DNA from: Verrucomicrobiales bacterium
GTDB taxonomy: Bacteria; Verrucomicrobiota; Verrucomicrobiia; Verrucomicrobiales; SLCJ01
DNA length: 15,538 nucleotides
Reading direction: 5' to 3'
NCBI GenBank assembly: GCA_046075565.1
Contig: JBJTQJ010000101.1
Span: forward strand, 1 to 15,538
The notes beneath the pieces are model-generated. The model saw nothing but the letters and a program-made list of their open reading frames with translations, searched no databases and was not told where the DNA came from. Below, one piece after another: positions 1 through 15,538 of the stretch. Each line of letters starts with the position of its first letter. Within the stretch, counting starts at the first letter, position 1. The position numbers and the translations under genes were made by a program.

Positions 1-94
1 ATCACGGTCGTGACCCCGCGTCGCCTGAGAGGCGATGAAGGGCAAGCCGCTGATGCGGATCCGGAACCCCCGGACTTTCAAGTTTCCTGTCTTC

Positions 95-2155: not shown

Positions 2156-2392
2156 GCAGACGAGGATGGAGCAACCGGAGTTGCGGGTTCAACCCATGGG
2201 CATGGCCCATGGGTCACTAGTATTACTCTAGCACATTCGGGCCGTCGAAAACGAAAAATTCTTTCGCATTTACAAATCATTTGGGGAGTCCGACGCTCCT
2301 CAATCGCCCGACTGCCACGTTTCGAACTTGGCAATTACACTCTGTCGGCTCCCTCCCAGAAACCCGCTCGCCTTGTGACGTCCGAAACCCTC

Positions 2393-2525
2393 GTCCAAGG
2401 AGGGGCGGACTCCGATCCGCCCGGTTCATGCGTGGCGAAAGCGCCACCCCTGTCTTGAAGGGGTCATCTACCACCCATGGGCATACCATTCGACCCGTCG
2501 GATCGGAGTCCGCCGCTCCTTGGAC
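2393..2525. repeat. 27-bp inverted repeat pair enclosing 79 bp (REP doublet/MITE-like or invertible segment)
   Basis: 2393-2419 GTCCAAGGAGGGGCGGACTCCGATCCG is the reverse complement of 2499-2525 with one mismatch; internal hairpin GTGGCG-AAAG-CGCCAC at 2432-2447. Confidence 0.9.
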
Positions 2526-2619
2526 AACCGCCTGTCCCGTTTTCCGGCGTGGTCCATCGACAGAACTCGAAGAGTTGCGGAAGGGATCCAGCCTCCACCT
2601 CTTCCGCCTCTTTTTTCTC

Positions 2620-2648
2620 TGGACTTTTCCGGCATTCGGAGGCAGATT
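2620..2648 (+). promoter_or_regulatory. Possible sigma70 promoter for wza
   Basis: TGGACT-N17-CAGATT, 11 nt upstream of ATG 2660; weak consensus match. Confidence 0.3.
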
Positions 2649-2659
2649 CCCGCACACCT

Positions 2660-3505: not shown

Positions 3506-3583
3506 ACACGCCAATCCAAGGAGGGCCTGATTCTTGCGAATCAGAATGCCGGTTCCAATTTCCCCCCACACCCGCACGACGAC

Positions 3584-5821
3584 ATGGAAGATGAAGATTT
3601 TGAAGATAGCTCGCCCGCCCCGCGTTCCCGGCGCTCCAGGCATAACGCCCTTTTGCCGGCCATGCTCGGCCGATGGTATTGGGTGGCTCTCCTTTTGATC
3701 TTGGGGGCGCTCTCCTCGCTCTACTATCTGTCCAAAGCGCCCAAATATTTTACGGCCACGGCCACACTGGCCATTACCATGCCCGAGCGGAGCATGATGG
3801 GCGGCGGACGTGCCCAGAGCGAAGAGTTTGATACAACCACCCTCGAGGGTCTCAATACCATCGCCGCCCGTCTTGGACGGGTTGAGTTGCTCGAGCGCGT
3901 GGCATCACGAGCCGATGTTTTGGCGTTGCGTGGCTTCGTTCCGCCTGAAGTGGACTGGCGTCCCTCCTGGTGGACGGCTTGGACCGAAGGTTCGGACGCC
4001 CAGGCTCGCGTGGCCACCGATGCGCGCGCCTTGCCCAAGACCGCTCTGGTTAGCGTCATCGGTTCTGGCATCAGTGTCAAGGTCCGGGCGAGGACCCGCC
4101 TCCTCGACATCAGCGTCAAACATAGGGATCCGGCAGTCGCACGGGTGCTCGCCGATGCCGTCGCCACCGAGTATGTGGCGGAAACCGAACAAATCGCCGG
4201 CGAAAACCGCAGCACCCAGTCCAACACGCTGATCGCCAAAGCCGAGGAAGCCAGCCGCAAAATCGCCGAAACCAACACCGCTCTCGGCAACTATACCCGT
4301 GTGCTCCAATTGCATCAGGAACTTGAGGGCATGGAGACAACCTATGCCACCCTCGCCCTGCGCTACCGTCCGAGGTATCCCGACATGGTCGATGCCAAGG
4401 GAAAACTCGAAGATATCAAGCGCCGCTTCCTCGCCGAGTTGGACACGGCCATGACCTCCCCGGCGGATGCCCCCTACTGGCAGACCGCCGCCGATGCCAT
4501 CACCGCCGCCAAGGACGACCCCGAGGCCAAGTTGAACGCCGCCCGTCAGGCCCTTCTTTCCCGTGTTTCCGTGCTCAATGCCCAAGCAAAAAGCCAGGAA
4601 ACCATTCTCCAGGCCATGTCCACCAGCAGCACCATAGGCGACGTGGACCGCGAGACATCGAGCATCTCGATCCGGGTGGATAACAAGGCATTGCTGCCCG
4701 AACAGCCCTCGGAACCAAGCGTGCCGAAGATCATTGTCATTGGTTCGGGTGGTGGTCTTTTCCTCGGTTTGGCGACCGCCTTCCTGCTCGCCAAGCTCGA
4801 CAACAAATTCCATTCGGTGGCCCAACTTGAAGCTGAGGCCGAAGTGCCCGTCCTCGCGGCCATCTCCCAAATCAACCCGAGCCATCTCGCCCAAGCCGTC
4901 AACTATACCCGCAAACGGGGGAAAGATGTTGAATTGAATGGCCCGCAACAATCCTGGGATCCGCTCCTGCTTTTCCGCCCCGGCCTTTCCTCGACCAACT
5001 TCTGCGAGAACTTCCGCGTCCTCCGCGCCTCCGTTGCCTTGCTTGGCGACGAGAAGCGCCGCCGGATTACCCTCTTCACCAGCTCCTTGCCCGGTGAAGG
5101 GAAATCCATGGTCTCGGCCAACTTCGCCCTCGCCTCCGCCGCCCTCGGGCGCAAGACCCTCCTCATCGACCTCGATCTCCGCAAGCCCCGCCAGCACAAA
5201 ATCTTTGGTATCCTGAGAAACCAACACGGCAAGGCCGGAGCCACCGATTGGTGCGCCGGTCAGGCCACCATGGAAGAAGCGACCATCACCGACACCGGTG
5301 CCGAGAACCTCCACATCATTGTCTCTGGCTCCCGCGCTCCCAACCCCGGTGAGCTACTCCAGGCCGACCGGCTCCGCGAGATCTTCGAAGAAGCCATGGC
5401 CAAATACGAGGTCGTGGTTGTTGATACCGCGCCTCTCCTTGCGGTGCCGGAAGCCCGGCTCATCGCCCCCTTCGTCGACAATCTCTGCCTGATTGTCCGC
5501 GCCAATTTGGTCTCCAAAGGCGCGGTCCAGCGTTCCCTCGACCTTCTCGAGTCGGCCGGCACTCCGCCTTCGGGGCTCATCTTCAACGGTTATACTGAAA
5601 GCCGTCGTCGTATCGGGTACAACTACACCTATGGCAGCTATCGGACGAGCCGCTTCGGTAAGGCCGTGCAATACGGCTACGGCTCCTACGGTTCCTACGG
5701 CTCCTACGGCCATGATCACGATGACGACCACGACGATGAACCCGGAGACGAGGTCGCCAATCGAGGCAAGGCGAAAAAAAACCAGAGCCCCGAGCCCAAG
5801 GGTCCATCCGAGGACCTTTGA
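3584..5821 (+). CDS. wzc: Polysaccharide co-polymerase/BY tyrosine autokinase (Wzc/GumC family)
   Basis: 745 aa; two TM segments flanking a coiled-coil periplasmic region; ENFRVLR; Walker A SSLPGEGKS; A' LLIDLDLRKP; Walker B VVVVDTAP; Tyr-rich tail YGYGSYGSYGSYG. Confidence 0.96.
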   Translation: MEDEDFEDSSPAPRSRRSRHNALLPAMLGRWYWVALLLILGALSSLYYLSKAPKYFTATATLAITMPERSMMGGGRAQSEEFDTTTLEGLNTIAARLGRVELLERVASRADVLALRGFVPPEVDWRPSWWTAWTEGSDAQARVATDARALPKTALVSVIGSGISVKVRARTRLLDISVKHRDPAVARVLADAVATEYVAETEQIAGENRSTQSNTLIAKAEEASRKIAETNTALGNYTRVLQLHQELEGMETTYATLALRYRPRYPDMVDAKGKLEDIKRRFLAELDTAMTSPADAPYWQTAADAITAAKDDPEAKLNAARQALLSRVSVLNAQAKSQETILQAMSTSSTIGDVDRETSSISIRVDNKALLPEQPSEPSVPKIIVIGSGGGLFLGLATAFLLAKLDNKFHSVAQLEAEAEVPVLAAISQINPSHLAQAVNYTRKRGKDVELNGPQQSWDPLLLFRPGLSSTNFCENFRVLRASVALLGDEKRRRITLFTSSLPGEGKSMVSANFALASAALGRKTLLIDLDLRKPRQHKIFGILRNQHGKAGATDWCAGQATMEEATITDTGAENLHIIVSGSRAPNPGELLQADRLREIFEEAMAKYEVVVVDTAPLLAVPEARLIAPFVDNLCLIVRANLVSKGAVQRSLDLLESAGTPPSGLIFNGYTESRRRIGYNYTYGSYRTSRFGKAVQYGYGSYGSYGSYGHDHDDDHDDEPGDEVANRGKAKKNQSPEPKGPSEDL

Positions 5822-5986
5822 GCGAGTTGGGCGAGGCGAGTCAAAATGTGCCGCCGGCAGCCAAACCACTTTCACCTTTTAGGGTCGATTTCTGGTTTCC
5901 AGTCAAATCGACCATGGGCGGAGGCTTGGCTTGAATGCAATAGAGCCGCTGGCTGGGCGCTGCACGGTCGTCGGGGCCTTCGGCCC

Positions 5987-6130
5987 GTCCTTGGTCTTTG
6001 GTCCTTAGTCGAGCTTGTTCAGAACAAAGTGCCATTCAAGCGCTAGCAAATGCAAGTATCATGCGAAGCGCGATAGCACTTCATCATAACCGACCAAGGA
6101 CCAAGGACCAAGGACTAAGGACTAAAGAAC
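5987..6130. repeat. Inverted pair of heptamer tandem arrays (GTCCTTG-type / CAAGGAC-type)
   Basis: 5987-6010 GTCCTTG GTCTTTG GTCCTTA GTC; 6092-6130 GAC (CAAGGAC)x3 TAAGGAC TAAAGAAC; the two arrays are mutually complementary. Confidence 0.9.
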
Positions 6131-6155
6131 CCGCGACCCTGTCGGGGCAGGCCCC

Positions 6156-6857
6156 ATGCGCAATCTCTTGTTCATTCTCGTTGCCATCGCGGTCATTGAG
6201 GCCGTCGCCTGGTGGTGGATGAACCCGGCTCCCGCCGGACTCGGCAAACCGGTGCTGACCTACACTCCGGCCTATCTGGACAACCCGACAACCGGGACAG
6301 CGAAATTCGAACCTCACACCTCAAGCACGGGTTCTCTGGTGACGCTCTTGCCGGAAATCGTCGCGACGGCCCGTCCCACCCTGCGCTGTAGCACTGGCAT
6401 CGCGGCCCGCATCGAGCGGGACGACGGCGTCTCCATCCATGTCGCGTTTTTCGAATGGGACCACAAATCAACTGCCAATACCCTGGAGGCGTTCAAACAT
6501 CTGCCGGATGAGTGTATGGGCTCCATCGGGCACAAACTCATCGAAAAAGCCGCGCCCCGTGCCTACAAGGTCGGCGACCAATCGCTCTCCTTCGACCATA
6601 CCATTTTCCGCGACCCCTCCGGCATGCTCATCCATGCCTTCAAAGGCACATGGGTCTCCGGGGCCGATACCCTGATCGGCGAGGAAACCCGCGGCGGTGT
6701 CGAACAATGGAACCAACTGCGCCGGAAGGCCGCCTTCAAACGGTTCCGCCCGGCCTACGCCCGCGTCGTGCAAGGCGCGGTCCGTGGCATTGCCAACTCC
6801 GACCAGGCATGGGAAATCTTCCGCTCCACCATCCTGGTCGATCTGGAAATGAAATAG
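6156..6857 (+). CDS. epsI: EpsI-like (exosortase-associated, DUF3485-like) membrane-anchored periplasmic protein
   Basis: 233 aa; N-terminal TM anchor; HLPDECMGSIG resembles the EpsI HxPxxCxxxxG motif; directly downstream of wzc. Confidence 0.6.
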   Translation: MRNLLFILVAIAVIEAVAWWWMNPAPAGLGKPVLTYTPAYLDNPTTGTAKFEPHTSSTGSLVTLLPEIVATARPTLRCSTGIAARIERDDGVSIHVAFFEWDHKSTANTLEAFKHLPDECMGSIGHKLIEKAAPRAYKVGDQSLSFDHTIFRDPSGMLIHAFKGTWVSGADTLIGEETRGGVEQWNQLRRKAAFKRFRPAYARVVQGAVRGIANSDQAWEIFRSTILVDLEMK

Positions 6858-7110
6858 CGGCGAAGCCGCTGTGCGTGGTGCTTGGTCCTGCGCCGGCGGC
6901 GCTGTCCTTTGACCGTGCCTGTTCCGACAGAGTCGGGGGTCCTTGGTCAAAAAAAGCATGCGCCAGCGACCAGGGGTCAGGCTAAGGACCAAGCACAGTG
7001 CCTCCGGCGCTTCCCCCCTGTCAGCTTTCCCCCTTCAGGTCTCCGGCTTAATGAAGCCCTGCCTTTGGGGCATCAGCGTTTCAGCTTTTCTCTTCCACCT
7101 CTCACCGGAC

Positions 7111-7289
7111 GCCGGGACCATGCCGATGTCGAGGCCATGCTTCACAACGGACTGATTGAAAAAAAACTCCTCATGGTGCTCTTCAGTCGAATCGAACCCG
7201 CCCTGATCCGTTATCCCGCGCTCGACCCGGAAAGTTTCCGGAACACCGTCGAAGTTTTCTGCAACGCCATCGATAACTCGGCCGGATGA
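7111..7289 (+). pseudogene. 5'-truncated copy of the DUF6036-like nucleotidyltransferase gene
   Basis: Near-identical to 13483-13661 (RDHADVEAMLHNGLIEKK...IDNSAG*); the N-terminal two-thirds, including the catalytic motif, is absent. Confidence 0.9.
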
Positions 7290-7603
7290 ACTTCGATCCA
7301 ATGCATCAACTCATCGCCGACTTGCCCGGTGCCCAGCGTGTGTCAGAGGGTTTGAACGATCATCGTCATCAACGCCACACCCTCGCCTCATGCCTCGTGC
7401 GCATCGCGCGCCCTCGGCTTGCCAGGGCCGGCCTGATGCAGGCCTTGCCTGTGCACGACACCCGGGCGGAACTTGACCTCTACCAACTTCTCGCATCCGA
7501 GGGAAACCAAGCCCATAGTCGCTACAACGCGCTCATTCGCGAGCTGGTTAGCTTCGAGCGTGCCCTCGACCACCGCCTTGCCAAAAGAAAGCCAAAACCG
7601 TAG
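7286..7603 (+). CDS. Hypothetical protein, partner of the DUF6036-like NTase (copy 1)
   Basis: 105 aa; ATGA overlap with the upstream remnant; 86 of the first 98 aa identical to 13658-13984 by manual alignment. Confidence 0.85.
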   Translation: MNFDPMHQLIADLPGAQRVSEGLNDHRHQRHTLASCLVRIARPRLARAGLMQALPVHDTRAELDLYQLLASEGNQAHSRYNALIRELVSFERALDHRLAKRKPKP

Positions 7604-7867
7604 CGCAACAGGCAGGGCTCAGGGGTCAGTCAAAGATCATCGATCATCAATCTTCAATCCCTCGGTCCCACCGACTCGGGACCAAGGACAAAGGACCTCC
7701 GACTCTGTCGGGGCGAGCAAGAGCCTCCAACGGGCAGTCCCACCCTTGCCCGCCATAGCCACCAGGGCGACGGCGGGGCCCAAATCCTCCGCTCTTCCTC
7801 CATCATCGGCGGTGCTACCGGATCAACCACGTCATCGGGCAAGTCCGCACCAAGGCCGTCGCCGTGC

Positions 7868-7895
7868 TTGCCTCGTTTTAGCCCTGTGGTAAAAT
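7868..7895 (+). promoter_or_regulatory. sigma70-like promoter (leaderless position)
   Basis: TTGCCT-N16-TAAAAT with extended -10 TG; ATG 7903 lies 7 nt downstream. Confidence 0.65.
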
Positions 7896-7902
7896 GACCA
7901 CC

Positions 7903-8154
7903 ATGAAACACAAGGATCTGCTGGAACGAATCTCCTTCGACCCCGAAATCTTCGGCGGCAAGCCCATCATCCGCGGCCGACGCCTTGCAGTGGAGCACGT
8001 GCTCGACATGCTGGCTGCCGGGGACGACGCGGCCACGATTCTCAAAGGTTATCCATGGCTGGAACCTGAAGTCATCCAGGCCTGTCTCACCTACGCCTCC
8101 ATGCTCGCACGCCATGAGCGAATCGAAATCCTCCCTGCTGCCCTGGCAAGCTGA
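7903..8154 (+). CDS. DUF433 family antitoxin
   Basis: ERISFDPEIFGGKPIIRGRRLAVEHVLDMLAAG...YPWLEPEVIQACLTYA is a typical DUF433 signature; alternative start 7894. Confidence 0.93.
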   Translation: MKHKDLLERISFDPEIFGGKPIIRGRRLAVEHVLDMLAAGDDAATILKGYPWLEPEVIQACLTYASMLARHERIEILPAALAS

Positions 8155-8504
8155 TGGCTCTGGTTCTTCTCGACACTTGCGTTTGGGGTGGTGTTCTTCC
8201 CGATTTGGAGGCTCTCGGTCACGATGTTGTCTGGTCCGGAAACTGGGAAAAAGATCCGGGGGACTAGGCGATTTTGCAATCAGCCTATTTGGAAAGCCGC
8301 ATTCTCGTCACCTTGGATAAAGATTTCGGCGAACTGGCCATTCTCAAAGGCATGCCGCATGCCGGCAACATCCGCCTCACAGGCTTCCGTGCCTCCCAAA
8401 TGGCTGGCGTCATCAACCACCTCTTGGTTGCATACGACGTCGAACTGACGGATGCCGCCATTCTCACGGTTACTCCAGAACGTGTCCGCATCCGCGTGCC
8501 CTGA
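8154..8504 (+). pseudogene. DUF5615/VapC45-like PIN toxin with an internal nonsense codon
   Basis: MALVLLDTCVWGG...LGHDVVW...DPGD*AILQSAYLESRILVTLDKDFGEL...RVRIRVP in one frame; single in-frame TAG at 8265-8267. Confidence 0.9.
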
Positions 8505-8618
8505 CTTCTGGCTGTCCGGGCGCTGAAGGCGCAGACCAATGACGCGGCGCAGCCGCCAAGCACCCCCGACCCTGTCGGGGCAGGCAGGCACAGTGCTTCT
8601 GGCGCTCTCAAAACCACG

Positions 8619-8647
8619 GTGACAAGTGGGCAACCGGGAGGTAAAAT
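8619..8647 (+). promoter_or_regulatory. sigma70-like promoter
   Basis: GTGACA-N17-TAAAAT; ATG 8653 lies 5 nt downstream; an SD-like GGGAGG also occurs at 8636-8641. Confidence 0.65.
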
Positions 8648-8652
8648 GACAT

Positions 8653-8823
8653 ATGACCAAGGTTCTTGAAATCGAAAAAGCCATAGAACAGCTTCCCGAG
8701 CACGAACAGCGGCAAATCGCCGAATGGTTCGAAGACCACCGGCTCGTTGTCGCGAGTTCGGCGTCTCTCGCGTCCATCTATGACGACGAGGATGGCGGAG
8801 AAAGCCAACTGGCCGGCGAATGA
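8653..8823 (+). CDS. Small putative antitoxin (56 aa, absent from the ORF track)
   Basis: MTKVLEIEKAIEQLPEHEQRQIAEWFEDHRLVVASSASLASIYDDEDGGESQLAGE*; acidic tail; ATGA overlap with mazF. Confidence 0.85.
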   Translation: MTKVLEIEKAIEQLPEHEQRQIAEWFEDHRLVVASSASLASIYDDEDGGESQLAGE

Positions 8824-9125
8824 AACGTGGTGAAATCTGGCTCGCCGACCTCGGCTATCAAGGAAAAATACGGCCGGTGCTGATCCTAAGCGTGTCTCCC
8901 GGCCCTTATGACCGCGCACTGGCCACCTACCTCATCCGGACGACCAGCGTGCGTGGAACCGCCTACGAAGTGCTACACCAGGCGCGTGGCATGAAAGACG
9001 GGGCTTTCGACGCCCAAGGGATAGGCACCACCGACTACAGCCGCTTCATGCGCCGCCTTGGAAAAATGGATGATCCCACGCTCGCCCTGATCGAAGATAA
9101 GGTTAGGGAATGGCTCTCACTTTGA
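8820..9125 (+). CDS. mazF: PemK/MazF family endoribonuclease toxin
   Basis: 101 aa; MKRGEIWLADL...GKIRPVLILS signature; C-terminal RRLGKMDDPTLALIEDKVREWLSL. Confidence 0.92.
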   Translation: MKRGEIWLADLGYQGKIRPVLILSVSPGPYDRALATYLIRTTSVRGTAYEVLHQARGMKDGAFDAQGIGTTDYSRFMRRLGKMDDPTLALIEDKVREWLSL

Positions 9126-9218
9126 AACATCAGGAGCCTGCCCACCGCTCACCCTTGCCCGCCATAGCCCGTAGGGCGACGGCGGGGCCCACCGCCCGCC
9201 ACGCCGATTCGAATCCCC

Positions 9219-9247
9219 TTTACCCAAAATCAACGCTGCGATAAACT
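9219..9247 (+). promoter_or_regulatory. sigma70-like promoter (leaderless position)
   Basis: TTTACC-N17-TAAACT; ATG 9254 lies 6 nt downstream; no SD; repeated at 12169-12197. Confidence 0.65.
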
Positions 9248-9253
9248 TGCAAC

Positions 9254-9469
9254 ATGAACGACCGCATCACATTCAACCCTAGGCAATGCGGAGGCCGCCC
9301 CTGTATCCGGGGAATGCGCATCCGCGTGATCGATATCCTCGACCTTTTGGCCGCAGGCCTCGACTTCGAGGCAATCCTCGATGAAATGCCAGACTTGGAA
9401 CGCGAGGACATCGTCGCGGCCATTCAATATGCCAGACGCGGAATGGACCATCCGGTTATCGCGGCATGA
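9254..9469 (+). CDS. DUF433 family antitoxin
   Basis: MNDRITFNPRQCGGRPCIRGMRIRVIDILDLLAAG...MPDLEREDIVAAIQYA. Confidence 0.95.
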   Translation: MNDRITFNPRQCGGRPCIRGMRIRVIDILDLLAAGLDFEAILDEMPDLEREDIVAAIQYARRGMDHPVIAA

Positions 9470-9607
9470 TTTGGCTCGACGCCCACCGTGATTTGGTTGC
9501 GGTGTGGAAATACTTCGGAAGAAATGCTCAAAGGGATTTTATCGGAACACCTCGAAACAGCCCTCGCTTTCATCCAGGCAGGTGATCCCCTTGTCGAGAT
9601 TCAATAA
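9466..9607 (+). pseudogene. DUF5615 PIN toxin with a large internal deletion
   Basis: ATGA-coupled start MIWLDAH joined out of frame to PTVIWLRCGNTSEEMLKGILSEHLETALAFIQAGDPLVEIQ*; compare the intact paralog 12429-12758 (MRFLIDAQL...PVIVWLRIGNAS...GNPLIEVR). Confidence 0.9.
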
Positions 9608-9658
9608 TTCCCGCCTTTCCCAGAAGTCAGAGTTCAGACCCAGTGCATGGAAAGCCCT

Positions 9659-9681
9659 GTAGGGCGTTTGTGTCAAACGCC
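9659..9681 (+). repeat. GTAG-family REP-like hairpin
   Basis: GTAG followed by a perfect 8-bp stem GGCGTTTG-TGT-CAAACGCC. Confidence 0.7.
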
Positions 9682-9709
9682 GGGCCAATGCGCCGCGACC
9701 ACAAAGCCC

Positions 9710-9791
9710 GGTTGGCAGTCCTCCAAGCCCAGGAGTCAGGGAACAGAAGTCAGGCTTCAGCTACCCCGACCTTGTCGGGGCAGGCAAGCAC
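9710..9791 (+). repeat. Spacer module F (~82 bp), second copy at 11832-11913
   Basis: GGTTGGCAGTCCTCCAAGCCCAGGAGTCAGGGAACAGAAGTCAGGCTTCAGC..CCCCGACCTTGTCGGGGC is near-identical in both copies; each is followed shortly by CTTCGCCCAAGG. Confidence 0.92.
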
Positions 9792-9930
9792 GGCGGCCAC
9801 GTCTCCAGGCACCAAGCACCCTACTTCGCCCCAAGGGCTACGAAGGGCAGGCAAAGGTCGTCGCGCTCCTGCTCGGACCGACCGGGGTCGGCAATACCGC
9901 ACGCCAGGTTCTGCCTCCTGGTGATCCATC

Positions 9931-9960
9931 TTGACAACCATGGGTAATCCGCGAGATCTT
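9931..9960 (+). promoter_or_regulatory. sigma70-like promoter
   Basis: Perfect TTGACA -35; weak -10 GATCTT at N18; ATG 9966 lies 5 nt downstream. Confidence 0.5.
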
Positions 9961-9965
9961 TGGCA

Positions 9966-10187
9966 ATGACCACCTTGGAAAAACTCCAGTCAAAAGTCGC
10001 CGCCCTTCCGGAAAGTTTGGCGGTCGAGGTGCTTGACTTTCTGGAGTATCTCGCGTCGAAGCGCGCTTCTGAGCAAGCGCTGAAAACAAACGCGGTTGGC
10101 CGATTCAGGGGCGCTTTCAAAGGCAAATTAAGTTCCTCCGACGAGTTTTCCCGCCGAAAATCCGATGAAATCCACATGGAGAGATAG
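9966..10187 (+). CDS. DUF2281-like antitoxin
   Basis: MTTLEKLQSKVAALPESLAVEVLDFLEYLASK...RGAFKGKL; the LPxxxxxEVLDFxEYL motif is characteristic; upstream of a VapC. Confidence 0.85.
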   Translation: MTTLEKLQSKVAALPESLAVEVLDFLEYLASKRASEQALKTNAVGRFRGAFKGKLSSSDEFSRRKSDEIHMER

Positions 10188-10579
10188 TCCGGCTGTCGTG
10201 CTGGATGCTTGTGCTCTCATTGCTTTTCTCAATGATGAAGCGGGCGCGGACATCGTGGATTCCATCCTCATTGGTCGAGTTATCCGCCACCAACCTTCTG
10301 GAAGTCGCCTGCGACGCCATCCGCAATAGCGGGGAAGTCTCAAGTGCCCGTCAAGTGATTGAAACGGTCCGGGAGTTGCCAATTTTCATCAGGTGGGACT
10401 TGGACGAAAAGCTTCTTGTAAATGCCGCCCGGTTCAAGTCCGGCTTCCGGATATCCTTGGCAGACTCCGTCGCTCTTGGGTTGGCTGTTTCCCGGGATGC
10501 GCCATTGGTGACGAGCGACCACCACGAGTTCGACCCACTCGCCAAGGCTGGCTTCGCCCGGTTTATTTGGATACGCTAA
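10165..10579 (+). pseudogene. vapC: VapC PIN-domain toxin, frameshifted
   Basis: Frame 1 gives (MKSTWRDSP)AVVLDACALIAFLNDEAGADIVDSILI; after ~10270 frame 2 continues VELSATNLLEV...ISLADSVALGLA...LVTSDHHEFD...WIR*. Confidence 0.88.
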
Positions 10580-10710
10580 TCAAATCCGCACCTCAGGCCC
10601 TTAGAGTACACCGCAGGCGCAGACCAAGGACGCGGCGCAGCCGCTAAGCACAAAGCACCCCCGACCTTGTCGGGGCGGACACGAACCGCGGCGCAGCCGC
10701 TTCCCCCCCC

Positions 10711-10792
10711 TTGCCTCCCTCCACTCCATCGCCCGAAAGCGCACCAACCACTCCCCGCCAGCCCGTGGCCCACTCCACCGACCCCGTAGAAC
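10711..10792 (+). repeat. Spacer module E (82 bp), second copy at 12010-12091
   Basis: TTGCCTCCCTCCACTCCATCGCCCGAAA...CCCCGTAGAAC with 3 mismatches between copies; both end at GTAGAAC and are followed by different hairpin sequences containing GCTAC. Confidence 0.92.
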
Positions 10793-10933
10793 TGGGTTGC
10801 GCTACAGACGCGGCGCAGCCGCGTAGCCACTCCTACCCTTGCCCGCCATAGCCCGTAGGGCGACGGCGGGGCCCAAATCCTCCGCTCTTCCTCCATCATC
10901 GGCTGAGCCACCGGTATCAACCACGTGATCGGC

Positions 10934-10962
10934 TTGACTCCTCCAACCACGTGAAATAGACT
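10934..10962 (+). promoter_or_regulatory. sigma70-like promoter (leaderless position)
   Basis: TTGACT-N17-TAGACT; GTG 10969 lies 6 nt downstream. Confidence 0.7.
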
Positions 10963-10968
10963 CAAGTC

Positions 10969-11043
10969 GTGGTAACTACCCGCCAATACCCGCACCTTTC
11001 ACCGGCGGAAATCCATTCCGCCTTGGCAACCTGCTTCGCATGA
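10969..11043 (+). pseudogene. 24-codon DUF433-like remnant/leader ORF
   Basis: GTG start, MVTTRQYPHLSPAEIHSALATCFA*; YPHLSPAEIHSAL resembles the DUF433 C-terminal helix (cf. YPWLEPEVIQACL, FPYLEPADIQACL in this window); stop overlaps the MNT start (ATGA). Confidence 0.65.
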
Positions 11044-11348
11044 CAATTGATCAAACCACCCGTCAAATGGCCGCTCGTCTCAAACGCGGTATGCGTGCTG
11101 AGCGGGTTTGGCTTTTTGGTTCACAAGCACGGGGAAATACCGGACCTCATAGCGATATCGATCTTCTTGCCGTGGTTCCTCACTCTACCGTTTCGCGCTA
11201 CCAAAGGGCCATCGCTGCCCGTCGTGAGCTATCCGACTTCAACGTACCCATGGACATCGTGGTTCTGACCCATGATGAATGGGAAAAACAGCTTAAAGCT
11301 CCCAGTTCCCTCGCCAGCACGGTGGCTAGGGAGGGAATCGCTTTATGA
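11040..11348 (+). CDS. Minimal nucleotidyltransferase (MNT) antitoxin
   Basis: 102 aa; VWLFGSQARG...SDIDLLAV and PMDIVV motifs of the Pol-beta-like MNT family. Confidence 0.93.
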   Translation: MTIDQTTRQMAARLKRGMRAERVWLFGSQARGNTGPHSDIDLLAVVPHSTVSRYQRAIAARRELSDFNVPMDIVVLTHDEWEKQLKAPSSLASTVAREGIAL

Positions 11349-11349
11349 C

Positions 11350-11757
11350 ATGAGTCCTGAATCCCTTGAACTCGCGAAAATCTGGTTGGCGAAAGCACAA
11401 TCGGATCTGGCCACGGCCAGGCTATTGATCAAGGGTGAAGAACGCTATTTGGACACTGGCAGCTACCATTGCCAGCAAGCGGCCGAAAAAGCCATCAAAG
11501 CATGGCTCACCGCAGCTGAAGTAACCTTTGTCAAAACCCATTCCCTGGAGATTCTCCTGCGCCTCTGTTTGCCCTCCAACCCAGGCTTCCTTCAGTTCCT
11601 TCCCCATGTGGTCGAGTTGACGCCGCTTGCCACCGAGTTCCGCTATCCTGGCGACATCTTCGAACCATCGCCAGCTGAAGCAGACCACGCGTTAATGCTT
11701 GCCGAAGAACTGACATCCTGGACTGCTTCAGAATTTGGCAAAATCCCAGTACCCTGA
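11350..11757 (+). CDS. HEPN domain protein (MNT-associated, PF05168-like)
   Basis: Start ATG 11350; WLAKAQSDL, YHCQQAAEKAIKA, KTHSL and RYPG motifs. Confidence 0.93.
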   Translation: MSPESLELAKIWLAKAQSDLATARLLIKGEERYLDTGSYHCQQAAEKAIKAWLTAAEVTFVKTHSLEILLRLCLPSNPGFLQFLPHVVELTPLATEFRYPGDIFEPSPAEADHALMLAEELTSWTASEFGKIPVP

Positions 11758-12168
11758 CCTTCCAACATCCGACAACCGACAATTTCCCATCCTCAGAGCC
11801 CAGTTGGCCTTGCCTGCCCCGACAAGGTCGGGGTTGGCAGTCCTCCAAGCCCAGGAGTCAGGGAACAGAAGTCAGGCTTCAGCGACCCCGACCTTGTCGG
11901 GGCGGGCAGGCACAAAGCCCCCTGCTTCGCCCAAGGTCTAACAAGGACTAAGGACCTCAAATCTCCGGTCTTGCGTCTTCTCGTCGTCCTTCATCCTTCA
12001 TCCTTTCTCTTGCCTCCCTCCACTCCATCGCCCGAAAACGCACCAACCACTCCCCGCCAGCCCGTGGCCCACGCCACCGGCCCCGTAGAACGGGGCTTCG
12101 CAACGGGCCCGTCTTCGACCTGCGGGCTACGACGGTGCCCACCCCTCGCCACGCCTATTCGAATCCCC

Positions 12169-12197
12169 TTTACCCAAAATCAATGCTGCGATAAACT
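12169..12197 (+). promoter_or_regulatory. sigma70-like promoter (leaderless position), duplicate of 9219-9247
   Basis: TTTACC-N17-TAAACT; ATG 12204 lies 6 nt downstream. Confidence 0.65.
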
Positions 12198-12203
12198 TGC
12201 AAC

Positions 12204-12422
12204 ATGAACGACCGCATCACATTCAATCCCGAACAGTGTGGCGGGAGGCCCTGCATCCGGGGAATGCGCATCCGCGTGAAGGATGTGCTCGACCTCTTGG
12301 CAGCGGGGGTGCCCCAGGCTGAGATTCTCGAAGATTTCCCATATCTCGAGCCTGCCGACATCCAAGCTTGCCTCGACTACGCCGCATCCCAAATCGATCA
12401 CCCGGTGCTCATTGCGAGTTGA
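12204..12422 (+). CDS. DUF433 family antitoxin
   Basis: MNDRITFNPEQCGGRPCIRGMRIRVKDVLDLLAAG...FPYLEPADIQACLDYA. Confidence 0.95.
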   Translation: MNDRITFNPEQCGGRPCIRGMRIRVKDVLDLLAAGVPQAEILEDFPYLEPADIQACLDYAASQIDHPVLIAS

Positions 12423-12428
12423 ACCGCC

Positions 12429-12758
12429 ATGCGTTTCCTGATCGACGCTCAGTTGCCGCCCGCATTGGCACGACTCTTGGAGGGGCATGGTCATGTCGCC
12501 GAACACGTTGAAGATATTGGCCTCCGCCATGCTGATGATTCCACCATCTGGGCCTACGCCGTTTCACATCAGGCCGTCATTATCACCAAGGACGAGGATT
12601 TTCCACAGCGCCTGCATCATGCCAGGTCCAAACCCGTGATCGTGTGGTTGCGCATTGGCAACGCCAGCCGCCGCGCACTGCTTCAATGGTTCGAGCCCCT
12701 GCTTCCGCAAATCGAATCCCTCATCGGCCAGGGCAACCCTCTGATCGAGGTGCGCTGA
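12429..12758 (+). CDS. DUF5615/VapC45-like PIN toxin (intact)
   Basis: MRFLIDAQLPPALA...GHVAEHV...DDSTIW...IITKDEDF...VWLRIGN. Confidence 0.93.
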   Translation: MRFLIDAQLPPALARLLEGHGHVAEHVEDIGLRHADDSTIWAYAVSHQAVIITKDEDFPQRLHHARSKPVIVWLRIGNASRRALLQWFEPLLPQIESLIGQGNPLIEVR

Positions 12759-12765
12759 CCTCTCC

Positions 12766-12882
12766 CGCTTCCGCCCTGCCCATGCCCGCGTCGTCCAAGG
12801 AGCCGTGCAAGGTGTTTCCTCTCCCGATCAAGCATGGGAAATCTTCCGCTCCAGCACCCTGGTCGATCTGGAAATGAAATAG
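12766..12882 (+). pseudogene. Diverged duplicate of the epsI 3' end (38 codons plus stop)
   Basis: Encodes RFRPAHARVVQGAVQGVSSPDQAWEIFRSSTLVDLEMK* versus RFRPAYARVVQGAVRGIANSDQAWEIFRSTILVDLEMK* at 6741-6857 (30/38 identical). Confidence 0.92.
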
Positions 12883-12944
12883 CGGTCCTGCGCCTGACCC
12901 AACAGAGTCGGGGGTCCTTGGTCAAAAAGGCATGCGCCAGCGAC

Positions 12945-13006
12945 CAGAGGTCAGAGGTCAGAGGTCAGTCAAAAATCCTCAATCTTCAATCCTCAATCCT
13001 CAATCC
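12945..13006 (+). repeat. Heptamer tandem repeats (CAGAGGT)x3 and (AATCYTC)x4.7
   Basis: 12945-12965 and 12974-13006; a degenerate version of the same junction occurs at 7620-7660. Confidence 0.9.
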
Positions 13007-13121
13007 AAGGACACTGCACCTCTGCAACCGCACCCCGCAAATCGCGTTCGACTTGCTAGCACATTCGCGCGGGCTCTGTGCGATACTTGCACTTTAATCT
13101 GGAAAATCAATTCCTCCACCC

Positions 13122-13661
13122 ATGCGTCAGCCGCTGGATATCGATAAGCTTAAGGCCTTCATGGTTGCGATGGGAGGGCGAACCAAGGGCCCAGGAAAAA
13201 TTTATCTCACCGGCGGAGCTACCGCCCTCCTTCATGGCTGGAGATCAATGACGGTGGATGTCGACATCAAGGCCGATCCCGAGCCCTCCGGCTATTTCGA
13301 ATCGATTGCCATGATCAAGGACGAACTGTCCGTGAACGTCGAGTTGGCAAGCCCATCGGATTTCATTCCCGAACTTCCCGACTGGCGTGAACGATCCCTG
13401 TTTATCGCGCGGCATGGCCAACTCGACTTCTATCATTACGATCCTTACAGCCAGGCGCTTTCAAAGCTGGAGCGCGGTCACGGCCGGGACCATGCCGATG
13501 TCGAGTCCATGCTTCACAACGGACTGATTGAAAAAAAACTCCTCATGGTGCTCTTCAGTGGAATCGAACCCGCCCTGATCCGTTATCCCGCGCTCGACCC
13601 GGAAAGTTTCCGGAACACCGTCGAAGTTTTCTGCAACTCCATCGATAACTCGGCCGGATGA
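13122..13661 (+). CDS. DUF6036-like nucleotidyltransferase (AbiEii-like fold)
   Basis: 179 aa; IYLTGGATALLHGWRSMTVDVDI matches the GG..R.T.DxD NTase motif; C-terminal SKLERGHGRDHAD. Confidence 0.8.
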   Translation: MRQPLDIDKLKAFMVAMGGRTKGPGKIYLTGGATALLHGWRSMTVDVDIKADPEPSGYFESIAMIKDELSVNVELASPSDFIPELPDWRERSLFIARHGQLDFYHYDPYSQALSKLERGHGRDHADVESMLHNGLIEKKLLMVLFSGIEPALIRYPALDPESFRNTVEVFCNSIDNSAG

Positions 13662-13984
13662 ACTCCGATCCAATGCATCAACTCATCGCCGACCTGCCCG
13701 GTGCCCAGCGTGTGTCAGAGGGTTTGGACGATCATCGGGAGCATCGCCACACTCCCGCATCATGCCTCGTTCGCATGGCGCGCCCGCGGCTTGCCAAGGC
13801 TGGCCTGATGAAGGCCTTGCCCAAGCACGATACCCAGGCGGAACTGGATCTCTATCAACTCCTCGCCTCCGAAGGCAACCAGGCCTATAGCCGCTACAAC
13901 GCGCTCATTCGCGAACTCGTCAGCTTCGAGCATGCCCTCGACCACCGCCTTGGTAAGGAACAATCAGAGATTGGAACTTGCTGA
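13658..13984 (+). CDS. Hypothetical protein, partner of the DUF6036-like NTase (copy 2)
   Basis: 108 aa; ATGA overlap with the NTase; the paralog at 7286-7603 differs by many synonymous changes, which supports coding status. Confidence 0.85.
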   Translation: MNSDPMHQLIADLPGAQRVSEGLDDHREHRHTPASCLVRMARPRLAKAGLMKALPKHDTQAELDLYQLLASEGNQAYSRYNALIRELVSFEHALDHRLGKEQSEIGTC

Positions 13985-14012
13985 TCATGCATCGGGCTTC
14001 CGAATACTGTGA

Positions 14013-14118
14013 AGAGTCCGAAAGTCTCAAAGTCTGAAAGTCAAAAAGTGGCCAATACGCCACTTTCACTCTCTCCTCTCCGGCCTTCAGTCCTTCGACT
14101 TTAAGACCTTTAGACTTC
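14013..14118. repeat. Inverted octamer arrays around a perfect hairpin (possible terminator)
   Basis: AGAGTCCG AAAGTCTC AAAGTCTG AAAGTCAA (14013-14044); hairpin AAAGTGGC-CAATAC-GCCACTTT (14045-14066); complementary TCGACTTT AAGACCTT TAGACTTC (14095-14118). Confidence 0.8.
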
Positions 14119-14373
14119 TCCTCCCCTCTTCTTCCTGAAAACCAAAACTAGCAACTTCCCCTTCAATAATCTAAAATCCACAATCCTCAATTAACAATCG
14201 TCAATCTTCCCCGCGTCCCTTGGCGGTGCAAATCTCCTCCTTTTCCTCTAACTTCTGAGTGCTGACAGTCCGTTTGTTACAATGCGGGGACCGACCCCGG
14301 ACGCCAGCTGTTTGAGCTACAGATACCAACTCTCCCATATTCTTAGTTGAACGCGGCACCCTCACATCCAGGC

Positions 14374-15538
14374 ATGAGCTACCGCCCTGAAATTGACGGG
14401 CTGCGTGCAATTGCTGTCTTGGCCGTCGTGCTTTATCATGCCGGCCTCGGTTGTTCGGGTGGCTTTGTTGGAGTGGATGTGTTTTTTGTCATTTCGGGTT
14501 ATCTCATCACTTCCCTAATTCTCAAGGATATTGAGCGCGGCACCTACTCATTGGCAGAGTTTTGGGAGCGTCGCTCCCGCAGGATCATCCCGGCATTGTT
14601 CGTGGTGATTTTGGCGACTTTGCTTGCCGGGGGGGGCATTCTCCTGCCCGCCGATTATTCAGATTTGGGAGAATCAGCCATCGCCCAGACATTTTTTGGC
14701 GCAAACATCCACTTTTGGCTGGATTCAGGTTACTTCGCTGAACCTTCTGCGGAGAAGCCTCTTTTGCATACCTGGTCGCTGGCGGTAGAAGAGCAGTTTT
14801 ATTTGCTTGTCCCTCTCGTGTTCTGGGGAATCTTGAGAAATTCAGGGACCCGATCAAAAAACCGGGCTTTGATCCTGTTCTTCTTTGCCTTTCTGCTCAG
14901 CTTTGCACTCAGCGTGGTAAGGGTGCGGACGAATCCTTCATCCACCTTTTTTTTATTGCCCACACGCGCATGGGAGCTCCTCATGGGCTCGGTCTTGGCC
15001 ATGTTGCCGGCGGGCGCGATGCGTGCTCCACACTGGATCCGGGAAACCATCTGTGCATTGGGCATTGGGTTGATTCTCTGGTCCGTCTTCGCCTACACTG
15101 AGAGCACATTATTCCCGGGTATATCCGCCTTGCCTCCCTGTCTTGGTGCGGCGTTTGTGATCTGGTCGAACACGGGCACGACGACTCGCTGTTCGTCGAT
15201 ACTCCGGACTCGCCCAGTGGTATTCGTGGGCTTGATTTCTTATTCCTTATACCTTTGGCATTGGCCATTGTTTGCCTACGCTACGTATTGGTTTGGCAGT
15301 CATGTGCCTTTGTCCGTTCGTCTGTCGCTGCTTCTTGCCGGATTCGTTTTGGCGATTCTCTCGTGGCGCTATGTCGAAACACCGTTTCGCGCCCGCAAGG
15401 TTTGTGGCACCCGGCGGGGCATTTTCACCTTTGCCGGGTGCAGTTTGCTATGCATGTGCTCCGTTGGCCTGGTGGTTCAAGTAAATGCCGGGTTCCCCGC
15501 CAGACTTTCTCTTGAAGCGCTCTGTTTTGCTGAGGGCA
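14374..15538 (+). CDS. Acyltransferase-3 family O-acyltransferase (OafA/YrhL-like), running off the window end
   Basis: MSYRPEIDGLRAIAVLAVVLYHA...GGFVGVDVFFVISGYLIT...FWERRSRRIIP...HTWSLAVEEQFY...GLISYSLYLWHWP; no stop in the window, so it is missing from the ORF track. Confidence 0.96.
   Translation, partial: MSYRPEIDGLRAIAVLAVVLYHAGLGCSGGFVGVDVFFVISGYLITSLILKDIERGTYSLAEFWERRSRRIIPALFVVILATLLAGGGILLPADYSDLGESAIAQTFFGANIHFWLDSGYFAEPSAEKPLLHTWSLAVEEQFYLLVPLVFWGILRNSGTRSKNRALILFFFAFLLSFALSVVRVRTNPSSTFFLLPTRAWELLMGSVLAMLPAGAMRAPHWIRETICALGIGLILWSVFAYTESTLFPGISALPPCLGAAFVIWSNTGTTTRCSSILRTRPVVFVGLISYSLYLWHWPLFAYATYWFGSHVPLSVRLSLLLAGFVLAILSWRYVETPFRARKVCGTRRGIFTFAGCSLLCMCSVGLVVQVNAGFPARLSLEALCFAEG

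Follow-up and report, generated by a model that had tools for sequence, protein, structure and literature searches.

Sedentary chromosomal integrons contain arrays of small, co-oriented cassettes rich in toxin-antitoxin (TA) genes, and in environmental bacteria chromosomal TA clusters occur in variable regions or genomic islands. For their part, REP, BIME and REPIN elements are short, GC-rich imperfect palindromes that lie in intergenic positions after genes, form inverted doublets and are accompanied by RAYT (Y1) transposases. Heptameric repeats have reportedly been found in Xanthomonas and Nostoc. The TAACTGA repeats of marine Beggiatoaceae are described as intergenic heptamer arrays (PMC4679880). 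In a study of lake MAGs, TA genes ranked among the most frequent targets of deletion, and noncoding deletions in Planctomycetota were marked by tandem repeats between genes (PMC9426551).

The window analyzed here, the whole 15,538-nt contig C101 of a freshwater Verrucomicrobiota genome (3.9 Mb, 129 contigs), contains an array of eight two-gene modules (6858-13984). The array follows wza-wzc and an EpsI-like gene, and every gene in it is on the + strand. The conserved left flank (2477-5821) is formed by wza (2477-3505, +; Pfam Poly_export and SLBB; polysaccharide export) and wzc (3584-5821, +; Pfam AAA_31; NCBIfam TIGR01007, 1.6e-44; tyrosine autokinase). The gene that follows, X (6156-6857, +), encodes 233 amino acids with a hydrophobic segment at the N terminus; Pfam and NCBIfam searches with it gave no matching models, and any name given to its 180 homologues was "hypothetical." It had been called epsI from the sequence, and EpsI-like can be kept solely because the homologous domain is fused behind the exosortase domain of a 562-aa ORF in another genome (G031). 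On the right flank, an acyltransferase-3 family gene (14347-15537, +; Pfam Acyl_transf_3, 1.4e-28) runs past the contig end.

The number, strand and Pfam families of the modules agreed with the sequence-only reading, but translation of the window revealed that four of the eight are decayed. In the first, only a 3' stump of DUF6036 (7111-7289) precedes hyp (7286-7603), a helical partner. DUF433-1 (7894-8154) is paired with a DUF5615/PIN-like gene, PIN1 (8154-8504; partial Pfam match, 8274-8504), interrupted by an in-frame TAG at 8265-8267. The next pair (8653-9125), which appears intact, consists of a 56-aa ORF matching no family and MazF/PemK (8820-9125). DUF433-2 (9254-9469) is followed by PIN2 (9466-9610), a PIN-like remnant with an internal deletion, and DUF2281 (9960-10187) by VapC/PIN (10165-10579; Pfam PIN, 10205-10579), whose reading frame is shifted near 10280. 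MNT (NTP_transf_2, 11040-11348) with HEPN (11350-11757), and DUF433-3 (12204-12422) with a DUF5615/PIN-like gene (12429-12758), appear intact, and the array ends with full-length DUF6036 (13122-13661) and hyp (13658-13984). To judge from position alone, the 56-aa ORF and the two hyp ORFs would be antitoxins or toxins. Six family censuses gave 29 TA-family matches genome-wide, 7 of them in the window, which makes up 0.4% of the genome (window/genome: PIN, 1/16; DUF433, 3/4; PemK, 1/2; ParE, 0/1; NTP_transf_2, 1/3; DUF6036, 1/3). MNT was the sole array gene to match a PADLOC candidate family (PDC-S09), and no tie of the array to surface variation or phage defense, as had been suggested, was found.

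The spacers measured 128 to 490 nt, a wider range than the 100 to 390 bp or so estimated earlier, and the repeats among them comprised 25 direct families and 21 inverted pairs (all spacer features are given on the + strand). S0 (5822-6155) carries inverted heptamer arms (5987-6010 and 6092-6122) and a palindrome, P (6131-6152), that ends 4 nt upstream of the X start; a copy of S0 is present on contig C94 (87 to 94% identity). The spacer between X and the DUF6036 stump (within 6741-7603) contains a reversed P (6917-6948). S2 (7604-7893), whose initial 120 nt are common to contig C87, comprises a heptamer tract (7613-7660), a P-like sequence (7684-7725), module A+ (7735-7838) and a promoter-like site (7868-7895). 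Module D (8527-8563), P (8564-8580) and a promoter-like site (8619-8647) make up S3 (8505-8652), and in S4 (9126-9253) a module-A hairpin (9150-9191) is followed by 80 nt common to the upstream region of DUF433-3. S5 (9611-9959) has heptamers (9621-9637) and module C (9710-9791) enclosing P (9764-9780), and S6 (10580-11039) has module D, P (10659-10675), module B (10710-10805), A+ (10828-10932) and a promoter-like site (10934-10962). In S7 (11758-12203), an inverted P pair (11804-11834/11885-11915), forming a 121-nt hairpin with a predicted fold of -39.2 kcal/mol (z, -6.8), is accompanied by module C, module B (12009-12104) and the DUF433 upstream module (12124-12203). A reversed P and heptamers occupy 12892-13006, and S9 (13985-14346) has heptamer-like tracts alone, without P or a shared module. 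P-type palindromes were present, in both orientations, in 8 of the 10 spacers (all except S4 and S9), typically 60 to 150 nt past the preceding stop. A promoter had been assigned to six modules; we detected three sigma-70-like + strand sites upstream of modules, and the total of four sites represented no excess over shuffled sequence (mean, 2.5; standard deviation, 1.6).

The long spacer modules were restricted to C101 and a paralogous locus on C94/C87, and three repeat modules extend into coding sequence (7111-7580 = 13483-13952, 9174-9357 = 12124-12307 and 6741-6980 = 12766-12954), in accordance with ordinary segmental duplication or gene conversion. One such duplication is repeat H, a direct repeat of 0.9 to 1.2 kb on either side of the central 5 kb. 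Copy 1 (6741-7603, +) comprises the X 3' end, the reversed-P spacer, the DUF6036 stump and hyp, and copy 2 (12766-13984, +) comprises a remnant of the X 3' end (12766-12885), a spacer, full-length DUF6036 and hyp. Their identity was 91.9% over the 470 nt of 7111-7580 and 13483-13952, and it was mosaic (DUF6036 stump, 98.3%; hyp, 85.8%; X end, 82.5%). Since the spacer modules were 91 to 100% identical, compared with 58 to 70% at the nucleotide level for the paralogous genes that they flank, the spacers were copied or homogenized recently. The mosaic and this contrast together are the pattern that gene conversion would be expected to give. Modules A+ and D-P, however, adjoin unrelated genes and are thus not explained by the mere copying of genes together with adjacent sequence.

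Single modules recurred, with 66 to 87% nucleotide identity, in 78 of the 400 other genomes of the order compared by BLAST, each match corresponding to one module; this set included three genomes of the same family, none of which matched any module, and no genome of the same genus. Where coordinates were checked, matches began about 20 nt or less from the first start codon and ended at the second stop; in the BLAST comparison and the related loci, homology with relatives ceased at the ORF limits and never included the spacers. The most widespread module was DUF433-3/PIN-like (64 to 82%, many genomes of the order). A genome of another family (G041) shared hyp (87%) and DUF433-2 (84%), the latter module matching a full-length pair (L066/G041) at 84%; pairs of the 56-aa ORF and MazF were found in four genomes (G228, G216, G249 and G235; 72 to 77%), and DUF6036 and hyp were neighbors in 56 of 65 loci elsewhere. 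Cassette content and order do vary between relatives, as had been anticipated: those of the related loci L066 and L023/L024 differ from those of C101. Same-strand TA arrays with spacer repeats of their own were found in the polysaccharide loci of L024 and L066, which belong to two other lineages, and on contig C3 of this genome. Two recombination breakpoints could be mapped, one at nt 2520 of L023/L024, inside a wzm-like gene, and the other at the end of a DUF433-2/-3 conversion tract, about 100 nt into the gene; both fall within coding sequence and neither, contrary to expectation, in the repeats.

The short repeats were found well beyond the array. P was nevertheless enriched in the window, which contains 5 of the 14 strict copies of the genome; of 62 relaxed copies, against about 30 expected by composition, 8 are in the window. 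Period-7 tracts numbered 84 on about 45 contigs, adjoining glycosyltransferase, restriction and housekeeping genes (among the loci are McrBC, RibD, a glycosyltransferase cluster and an aldolase/microcompartment locus); tracts elsewhere in the genome and in L023 adjoin small 23S-rRNA-IVS-type or PD-(D/E)XK_3 genes, inverted heptamer arms surround one such gene on C15, and one tract varies by a single 7-nt unit in another sample. Among 301 genomes of the order, 12 had the module-A hairpin, at 1 to 3 copies per genome. It is conserved between families and includes a base pair that covaries (UA in 10 and CG in 8 of 19 distinct rows; covariation score above 500/500 shuffles). Its neighbors in 16 contexts included three clear TA-type genes (Zeta, PIN and Fic) and one weak Xre-like HTH, the remainder being housekeeping or transposase genes. 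In G140, a Zeta-toxin pair lies between two copies of a repeat of about 150 nt with this hairpin, and in G111 IS110-family and Y1 genes adjoin it. The shared, shuffled spacer repeats noted earlier are real, but they are a mixture of locally copied segments and generic REP-like hairpins and heptamers.

The array is probably an ordinary chromosomal TA island that lies in a hypervariable Wza/Wzc polysaccharide locus and owes its present form to duplication and to ectopic recombination between REP-like repeats. Self-contained TA pairs would have spread singly among lineages and piled up where insertion was tolerated, about half of them decaying afterwards. The spacers would represent lineage-wide intergenic hairpins and heptamer tracts plus pieces copied from one spacer to another, rather than a special recombination site, the copying proceeding by segmental duplication and by ectopic homologous recombination or gene conversion, with repeat H as one such duplication. 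This order of events and recombination among repeats as the shuffling force are suggested by the patterns above, and the hairpins may act as terminators or insulators. Against this explanation count the density and strict co-orientation of the eight modules, unusual outside integrons, the single P per junction and its local enrichment, as for a cassette-end site, the unrelated genes beside modules A+ and D-P, and the similar arrays in L024, L066 and C3 together with the bracketed Zeta pair.

The P element at most junctions, its enrichment and the bracketed Zeta pair could point to a dedicated attC-less system, in which P or module-A hairpins, perhaps with heptamer arrays, mark cassette ends and a trans-acting enzyme, such as one of the Y1 proteins of the genome (RAYT/IS200-like) or the integron integrase on contig C68, inserts, excises or shuffles the cassettes. 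The inverted P hairpin, the conservation of module A, the exchange of cassettes between families, the spacers younger than the genes and a genome holding 11 Y1_Tnp matches and an IntI would all fit. Nevertheless, we consider such a system unlikely. Profile searches placed none of the 4 Phage_integrase and 11 Y1_Tnp matches on C101, and a relaxed palindrome lies no more than 1.5 kb away from only 2 of the 11 Y1_Tnp matches. The hairpins are low in copy number with chiefly housekeeping neighbors, P is missing from two spacers and occurs in both orientations, and the paralogous locus, rather than excision, explains the contig joints seen in sequencing runs. The proposal that spacer repeats are capture substrates is not supported, in that the long modules are local, the short ones generic, and the spacers outside the homology with relatives. 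With breakpoints in genes and generic short repeats, two of the four outcomes that the sequence-only reading had listed against itself were partly observed; its observation is partly confirmed and its interpretation partly supported.

The contig is integrase-less, as had been stated, but the genome is not: C68 encodes an IntI (TIGR02249; 362.8 bits; cutoff, 265) with at least four cassettes, including RelB/ParE and HicA/HicB pairs. The array, co-oriented and TA-rich as in sedentary integrons, might then be a degenerate integron array (CALIN) with eroded attC, formerly served by that IntI, which we find scarcely credible. A home-made R''/L''/L'/R' pattern search recovered all four attC sites (66 to 127 nt) that lie at the ends of the C68 cassettes, whereas 5800-14400 gave 0 sites (3.1 in shuffles), bearing out the claimed absence of attC, and the single match on C101 lies inside the acyltransferase gene (genome background, 1.5 per 10 kb). 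The C68 sites are wholly unlike the C101 spacers, which are longer and carry promoter-like sites; the GC content of the array (0.582) is near that of the genome (0.596) and not that of the C68 cassettes (0.487), and the array sits between chromosomal polysaccharide genes. That part of the cassette order is an assembly artifact, with strains or the paralogous locus joined chimerically where the assembler crossed repeats, is very improbable. The assembly is a draft, C94 and C87 are broken within further copies of these repeats, Logan contigs from the run that covers the window best (and may be its source) break at shared modules, and word depth, a poor guide, was 20.5 over the left flank versus about 8 to 14 over the array. 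However, no shared module exceeds 105 nt, and they are nonidentical except for one 41-nt stretch; the copies of repeat H differ by 8%, and further samples of that study yielded independent contigs that cover the X-S1 and S3-antitoxin junctions and the S8-DUF6036 stretch with 0 or 1 differences; moreover, the modules are internally coherent and recur elsewhere as units.

Compared with known systems, the array resembles sedentary integrons in its co-oriented two-gene TA cassettes within a few kilobases, variable in content and common to distant lineages, but differs in lacking attC-like sites and an adjacent IntI, in its long spacers with promoter-like sites, in a GC content near that of the genome (10 points lower in the C68 cassettes) and in its polysaccharide operon setting. 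In contrast to known heptamer arrays, most of its tracts share one orientation and none encloses a TA pair, although period-7 tandem tracts, often as inverted arms, are common to both. REP, BIME and REPIN elements typically number hundreds of copies, whereas tens were found here, with 2 of 11 Y1 genes near a palindrome and several sequence families having the core alone in common; the palindromes after genes, the inverted doublet hairpin and the Y1 gene beside the module-A hairpin in G111 are nonetheless alike. Finally, while environmental TA clusters differ from this one-stranded array with the same palindrome at nearly every junction and recently homogenized spacers, it shares with them a hypervariable, horizontally exchanged region, many decayed copies and a patchy distribution.

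All eight two-gene modules of the toxin-antitoxin (TA) array (6858-13984) lie on the plus strand, the same strand as wza (2477-3505), wzc (3584-5821), the gene behind wzc (here X, 6156-6857) and an acyltransferase-3 gene that begins at 14347. The contig (C101; 15,538 nt) is one of 129 in a genome of 3.9 Mb, and the sequencing runs containing it are freshwater metagenomes. The names given to homologues assign it to Verrucomicrobiota. Profile matches identified both the Wza export protein and the Wzc tyrosine autokinase, as in a Wza/Wzc (exosortase-type) polysaccharide locus. Divergent from wza, a 686-aa open reading frame without family match occupies 95-2155 on the minus strand. Positions 1-141 repeat, in reverse complement and without mismatch, the beginning of another contig, C54, an assembly-graph overlap. 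ARAGORN detected no tRNA or tmRNA in the window.

Four of the eight modules look intact: a 56-aa ORF with MazF (module 3; 8653-8823 and 8820-9125), MNT with HEPN (module 6; 11040-11348 and 11350-11757), DUF433 with DUF5615 (module 7; 12204-12422 and 12429-12758), and DUF6036 with its partner ORF, hyp (module 8; 13122-13661 and 13658-13984). The other four are decayed. Module 1 retains a 3' stump of DUF6036 (7111-7289) before hyp (7286-7603); module 2 combines DUF433 (7894-8154) with a DUF5615/PIN-like gene (8154-8504) interrupted by an in-frame TAG at 8265; module 4 consists of DUF433 (9254-9469) and an internally deleted PIN-like remnant extending to about 9610; and in module 5, DUF2281 (9960-10187) precedes a VapC gene that is frameshifted near 10280 and runs to 10579. 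Both partners belong to recognised families in DUF433 + DUF5615 (copies 1 and 3), DUF2281 + PIN and MNT + HEPN, and a single partner does so in the MazF pair, in DUF433-2 (whose other gene is the unmatched remnant) and in DUF6036 + hyp. Such small, adjacent, co-oriented genes, with at least one recognised family in each pair, have the layout of type II TA systems, and a TA function is predicted for them. A census of six TA families in the genome gave 29 matches, 7 of them in the array, including three of the four DUF433 genes; the TA density of the island is thus exceptional for this genome. The eight co-oriented modules described in the sequence-only reading were confirmed. That reading had also proposed that the array possibly couples surface-polysaccharide variation to anti-phage or addiction functions; no link to surface variation or phage defence was found, and PADLOC matched MNT alone, to a candidate family.

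DUF6036 and hyp are a conserved pair, adjacent in 56 of the 65 loci found in other genomes, with the order reversed (hyp, then DUF6036) in loci of Acidobacteria and Actinomycetes. The hyp family comprises at least 497 proteins without a Pfam domain, and identities among the 120 homologues listed range from 57 to 91%. A confident AlphaFold model (pLDDT 88) is all-helical. Foldseek comparison with PDB folds gave nothing at an E value of 0.001 or better and a PDB sequence-profile search nothing below 0.5.

The gene X encodes a membrane-anchored protein of 233 aa, previously taken for epsI. It matched neither the EpsI family model nor any other Pfam or NCBIfam model, even at an E value of 5, and its 180 homologues (family lengths, 162 to 397 aa) are always "hypothetical" where the source gives a name. 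The sole link to EpsI comes from a 562-aa ORF in another genome, G031, where the region homologous to X follows an Exosortase_EpsH domain; on this ground the label "EpsI-like" is reasonable as a putative one. Downstream of the X homologues in G031, G016 and G029 (27 to 38% amino acid identity), no runs of small genes were seen, judged by ORF sizes only.

The array had been called integrase-less, which is correct for the contig but not for the genome. Four phage-integrase (tyrosine-recombinase) and 11 Y1-transposase matches occur in the genome, none of them on C101, and the IntI model (TIGR02249) passes its cut-off solely on contig C68, at 10107-11048 (362.8 versus 265 bits). There, a complete integron spans 9867-13990, with IntI and cassettes on one strand and a GTTAAGC core after the intI stop. 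Its cassettes, at least four and of low GC content (0.487, versus 0.596 for the genome), carry DUF4304-like, RelB/ParE, HicA/HicB and bacterial PH domain genes, and each ends in an attC-type imperfect palindrome, identified by direct inspection. At its end, C68 also contains the beginning of another ORF which, by eye only, has the look of an IS3-type transposase.

To search for attC sites, a purpose-written scan for R''/L''/L'/R' imperfect palindromes was used rather than the model of IntegronFinder, with the C68 cassette ends as a control. The scan recovered all four control sites and none in 5800-14400 (3.1 in shuffles); in agreement with the sequence-only reading, the array is therefore not an attC array. 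The whole of C101 gives a single match, located in the acyltransferase gene, while the background across the genome is 1.5 per 10 kb. Neither attC at the cassette 3' ends nor IntI with attI beside the array was found. As a caution, a genome with a true integron at another site can still come to carry a dense, co-oriented TA array lacking attC.

The spacers contain three kinds of repeats: segmental copies that include coding sequence, intergenic modules, and short generic elements. Among the first, a direct repeat (6741-7603 and 12766-13984) brackets the central 5 kb and is composed of the 3' end of X, a spacer, the 3' part of DUF6036, and hyp. Its identity is a mosaic, with 82.5% in the X end, 92% in the spacer, 98.3% in the DUF6036 part and 85.8% in hyp, and a third copy is divided between the ends of contigs C94 and C87. 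Similarly, DUF433-2 and DUF433-3 are 86% identical over a 184-nt stretch made up of 80 nt of upstream sequence and the first ~100 nt of the gene, whereas the whole genes are only 70% identical, the signature of a conversion tract with its end inside the gene. The intergenic modules (A/A+, B, C and D; 37 to 105 nt) are confined to C101, where they share 91 to 100% identity and flank unrelated genes: A+ stands before DUF433-1 and MNT, and D with the spacer palindrome P after PIN1 and VapC. The shared, shuffled spacer repeats of the sequence-only reading are real. Since these modules are far more alike than the paralogous genes (DUF433 copies, 61 to 70% at the nucleotide level; PIN1 and PIN3, 30% at the amino acid level), the spacers were copied or homogenised recently.

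The short elements extend well beyond the array. The palindrome P, CCCCGAC-N3-GTCGGGG, is present in 8 of the 10 spacers, and in spacer S7 (11758-12203) an inverted pair folds as a 121-nt hairpin (z, -6.8). An Rfam scan of the window at E values up to 1 gave only four sub-threshold chance matches to microRNA families, on palindromes. Tandem 7-nt units form a second class, present in the spacers and genome-wide; of the 84 tracts of at least three copies that TRF detected in the genome, the window contains 6, a density of 3.9 per 10 kb compared with 0.21 genome-wide. Those of the unit families of the array occur on ~45 contigs, next to a glycosyltransferase/Wzy cluster (C16), McrBC (C48), RibD (C100) and an aldolase/microcompartment locus (C20), among others. 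On C15 (4607-5366), long inverted heptamer arrays enclose a 23S-rRNA-IVS-type (four-helix) gene, and in the metagenome locus L023 tracts at 3200-3270 and 4878-5075 accompany small IVS-type and PD-(D/E)XK_3 genes (3200-5075). Within the open frame of a glycosyltransferase on C3, P and two heptamer tracts (5532-5649 of the excerpted locus) fall between the first N-terminal motif and the remaining domain, which looks like an in-frame insertion. In the X homologue of another metagenome locus, L024, a heptamer tract lies in the reading frame (about 930-960); it is absent from X of the window. Heptamer arrays belong to a known though unexplained repeat class (PMC4679880, PMC9426551, PMC4692102).

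Module A has at its core a two-stem hairpin of 27 to 35 nt with a conserved 3x3 internal loop, not represented in Rfam. Copies lie at 9159-9185 and 10843-10869, with a degenerate one at 7750-7776 and another on contig C105 (42635-42661). Among 301 genomes searched from the order, 12 contain the hairpin, with 3 strict copies in the study genome, 1 to 3 in each of the 11 others and no control matches. It is nearly invariant across several families, and its inner pair covaries (UA in 10, CG in 8 and UG in 1 of 19 distinct rows; GCCC/GGGC versus GCTC/GAGC). Of its 16 contexts outside the window, three are clearly TA-type (Zeta, PIN and Fic), one has a weak Xre-like HTH match, and two contain IS110 transposases, one of these also a Y1 gene; the remainder are housekeeping genes such as those for L25, LpxD, aldehyde dehydrogenase and UbiA. 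In genome G111, where an IS110 element is nearby, a Y1_Tnp ORF ends 75 nt before the hairpin, which there caps a palindrome some 110 nt long. In the study genome, 2 of the 11 Y1_Tnp genes have a relaxed palindrome within 1.5 kb.

With contexts of hairpin and heptamers that are largely non-TA genes, the proposed specificity of the repeats for TA cassettes mostly failed. Nor was the high copy number of REP/REPIN elements found: strict copies of P number 14 genome-wide, 5 of which fall within the window (0 for the reversed-pattern control), and relaxed ones 62, 8 of them in the window, with ~30 expected by composition, and the hairpin has the 3 strict copies. The short repeats fit low-copy REP-like elements rather than a cassette-specific site. 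The 121-nt hairpin of S7 points the other way, as does genome G140, in which two copies of a ~150-nt repeat containing the module-A hairpin bracket a Zeta pair. No empty site for this Zeta cassette was found in the same-genus genome G040, as the flanks there are not homologous to those of G140.

The study genome is the sole member of its genus in the collection, and the three genomes of its family yielded neither X nor any cassette at the thresholds used. Order-wide BLAST (E value of 1e-10 or better) gave matches in 78 of 400 other genomes, at 64 to 87% nucleotide identity and with one module per match. Wherever coordinates were checked, the match opens no more than ~20 nt from the start codon of the first gene and closes at the stop codon of the second, without homology in the spacers. 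Such ORF-limited homology could equally reflect cassette-wise transfer or purifying selection on genes whose spacers have diverged past detection. For at least two modules, the 84 to 87% nucleotide identity across families favours transfer; genome G041, of another family, has matches to hyp (87%) and DUF433-2 (84%), and locus L066, with the same two identities and spacing, was counted together with it once. L066 encodes, on one strand, wza and wzc (38% and 33% protein identity to those of the window), a sugar transferase, DUF218, an epimerase, hyp, DUF433/PIN (the full-length counterpart of the window remnant), DUF433/DUF5615, Unstab_antitox, DUF433, ParE-like and UPF0175 genes, and it carries its own spacer repeats and heptamers.

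The metagenome contigs L023 and L024, whose X is 54% identical in amino acids to that of the window, match each other at 99.6% identity for 2,520 nt, up to a point within a wzm-like gene where they part. In L023, wzm, the IVS-type and PD-(D/E)XK_3 genes, and wzt follow; in L024, there are wzm and wzt fragments, two DUF6036 modules, heptamers and a 51-nt palindromic repeat of its own in six copies. The fragments of this polysaccharide ABC transporter, whole in L023, are interleaved with the DUF6036 modules in L024 (2200-2766 and 5852-7355). From these differences and the cross-family matches, cassette content does vary among related loci, with modules apparently moving between lineages. The expectation that relatives would differ in cassettes, with breakpoints in the repeats, held for content only, as the mapped breakpoints fall in genes and homology ends at ORF ends.

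The window was compared, at likeness 90, with Logan contigs from four sequencing runs of a single study. None of these contigs spans the array. Three joints were found (6256 to 12752, 6883 to 12884 and 7723 to 9764); as all coincide with paralogues on C94 and C87, they were rejected as cassette deletions and attributed to that paralogous locus. The X-S1 and S3-antitoxin junctions, as well as the S8-DUF6036 stretch, are also present in independent samples, with 0 to 1 differences. The heptamer tract at 12986 is polymorphic in copy number between samples, being shorter by a single 7-nt unit in one contig of run X2 (depth 4.57 of 13.2). In the run that best covers the window, word depth, an unreliable guide here, is 20.5 on the left flank (1-5872) and ~8 to 14 over 6197-15535, with variants from 5873; a second strain may have the same wza-wzc and diverge after ~5872.

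The co-orientation, the palindrome at most junctions and the homogenised spacers are real, striking features of the array. We consider it rather probable that they belong to a TA island of the ordinary kind, lodged in a hypervariable polysaccharide locus. Individually mobile TA pairs would have gathered in the variable part of the locus, and the island would have been reshaped by duplication and by ectopic recombination, the latter among REP-like elements and heptamers that the lineage carries anyway. The sequence-only reading had proposed a non-integron cassette capture with spacer repeats as substrates. In its developed form, a dedicated attC-less capture in polysaccharide loci of Verrucomicrobiales would act on small, self-contained gene pairs bounded by hairpins or heptamer arms and moved by a trans-acting single-strand Y1/RAYT or integrase-type enzyme, which seems to us improbable. 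We likewise doubt strongly that hairpin-ended units of its cargo, TA pairs here and 23S-IVS-type and PD-(D/E)XK_3 genes elsewhere, undergo insertion, excision and shuffling. What most recommends a test of such a capture is recurrence: at least three verrucomicrobial lineages carry similar same-strand arrays in polysaccharide loci, each with homogenised spacer repeats of its own, and a further array lies on C3, where a second TA and polysaccharide locus (19000-27000) combines an exosortase, Phd/PIN, two glycosyltransferases, HepT/MNT and PIN.

Among the papers listed by full-text literature searches, judged by title and start of abstract, none described repeat-spaced TA arrays at verrucomicrobial polysaccharide loci, which is not proof of absence. 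If the ordinary island is the true reading, the locus would be a clear case of selfish TA pairs accumulating and decaying in a hypervariable surface-polysaccharide locus, with REP-like hairpins and heptamer tracts rendering such regions recombination-prone and difficult to assemble. The attC-less capture, if true, would be a second, independent solution to the task of the integron.
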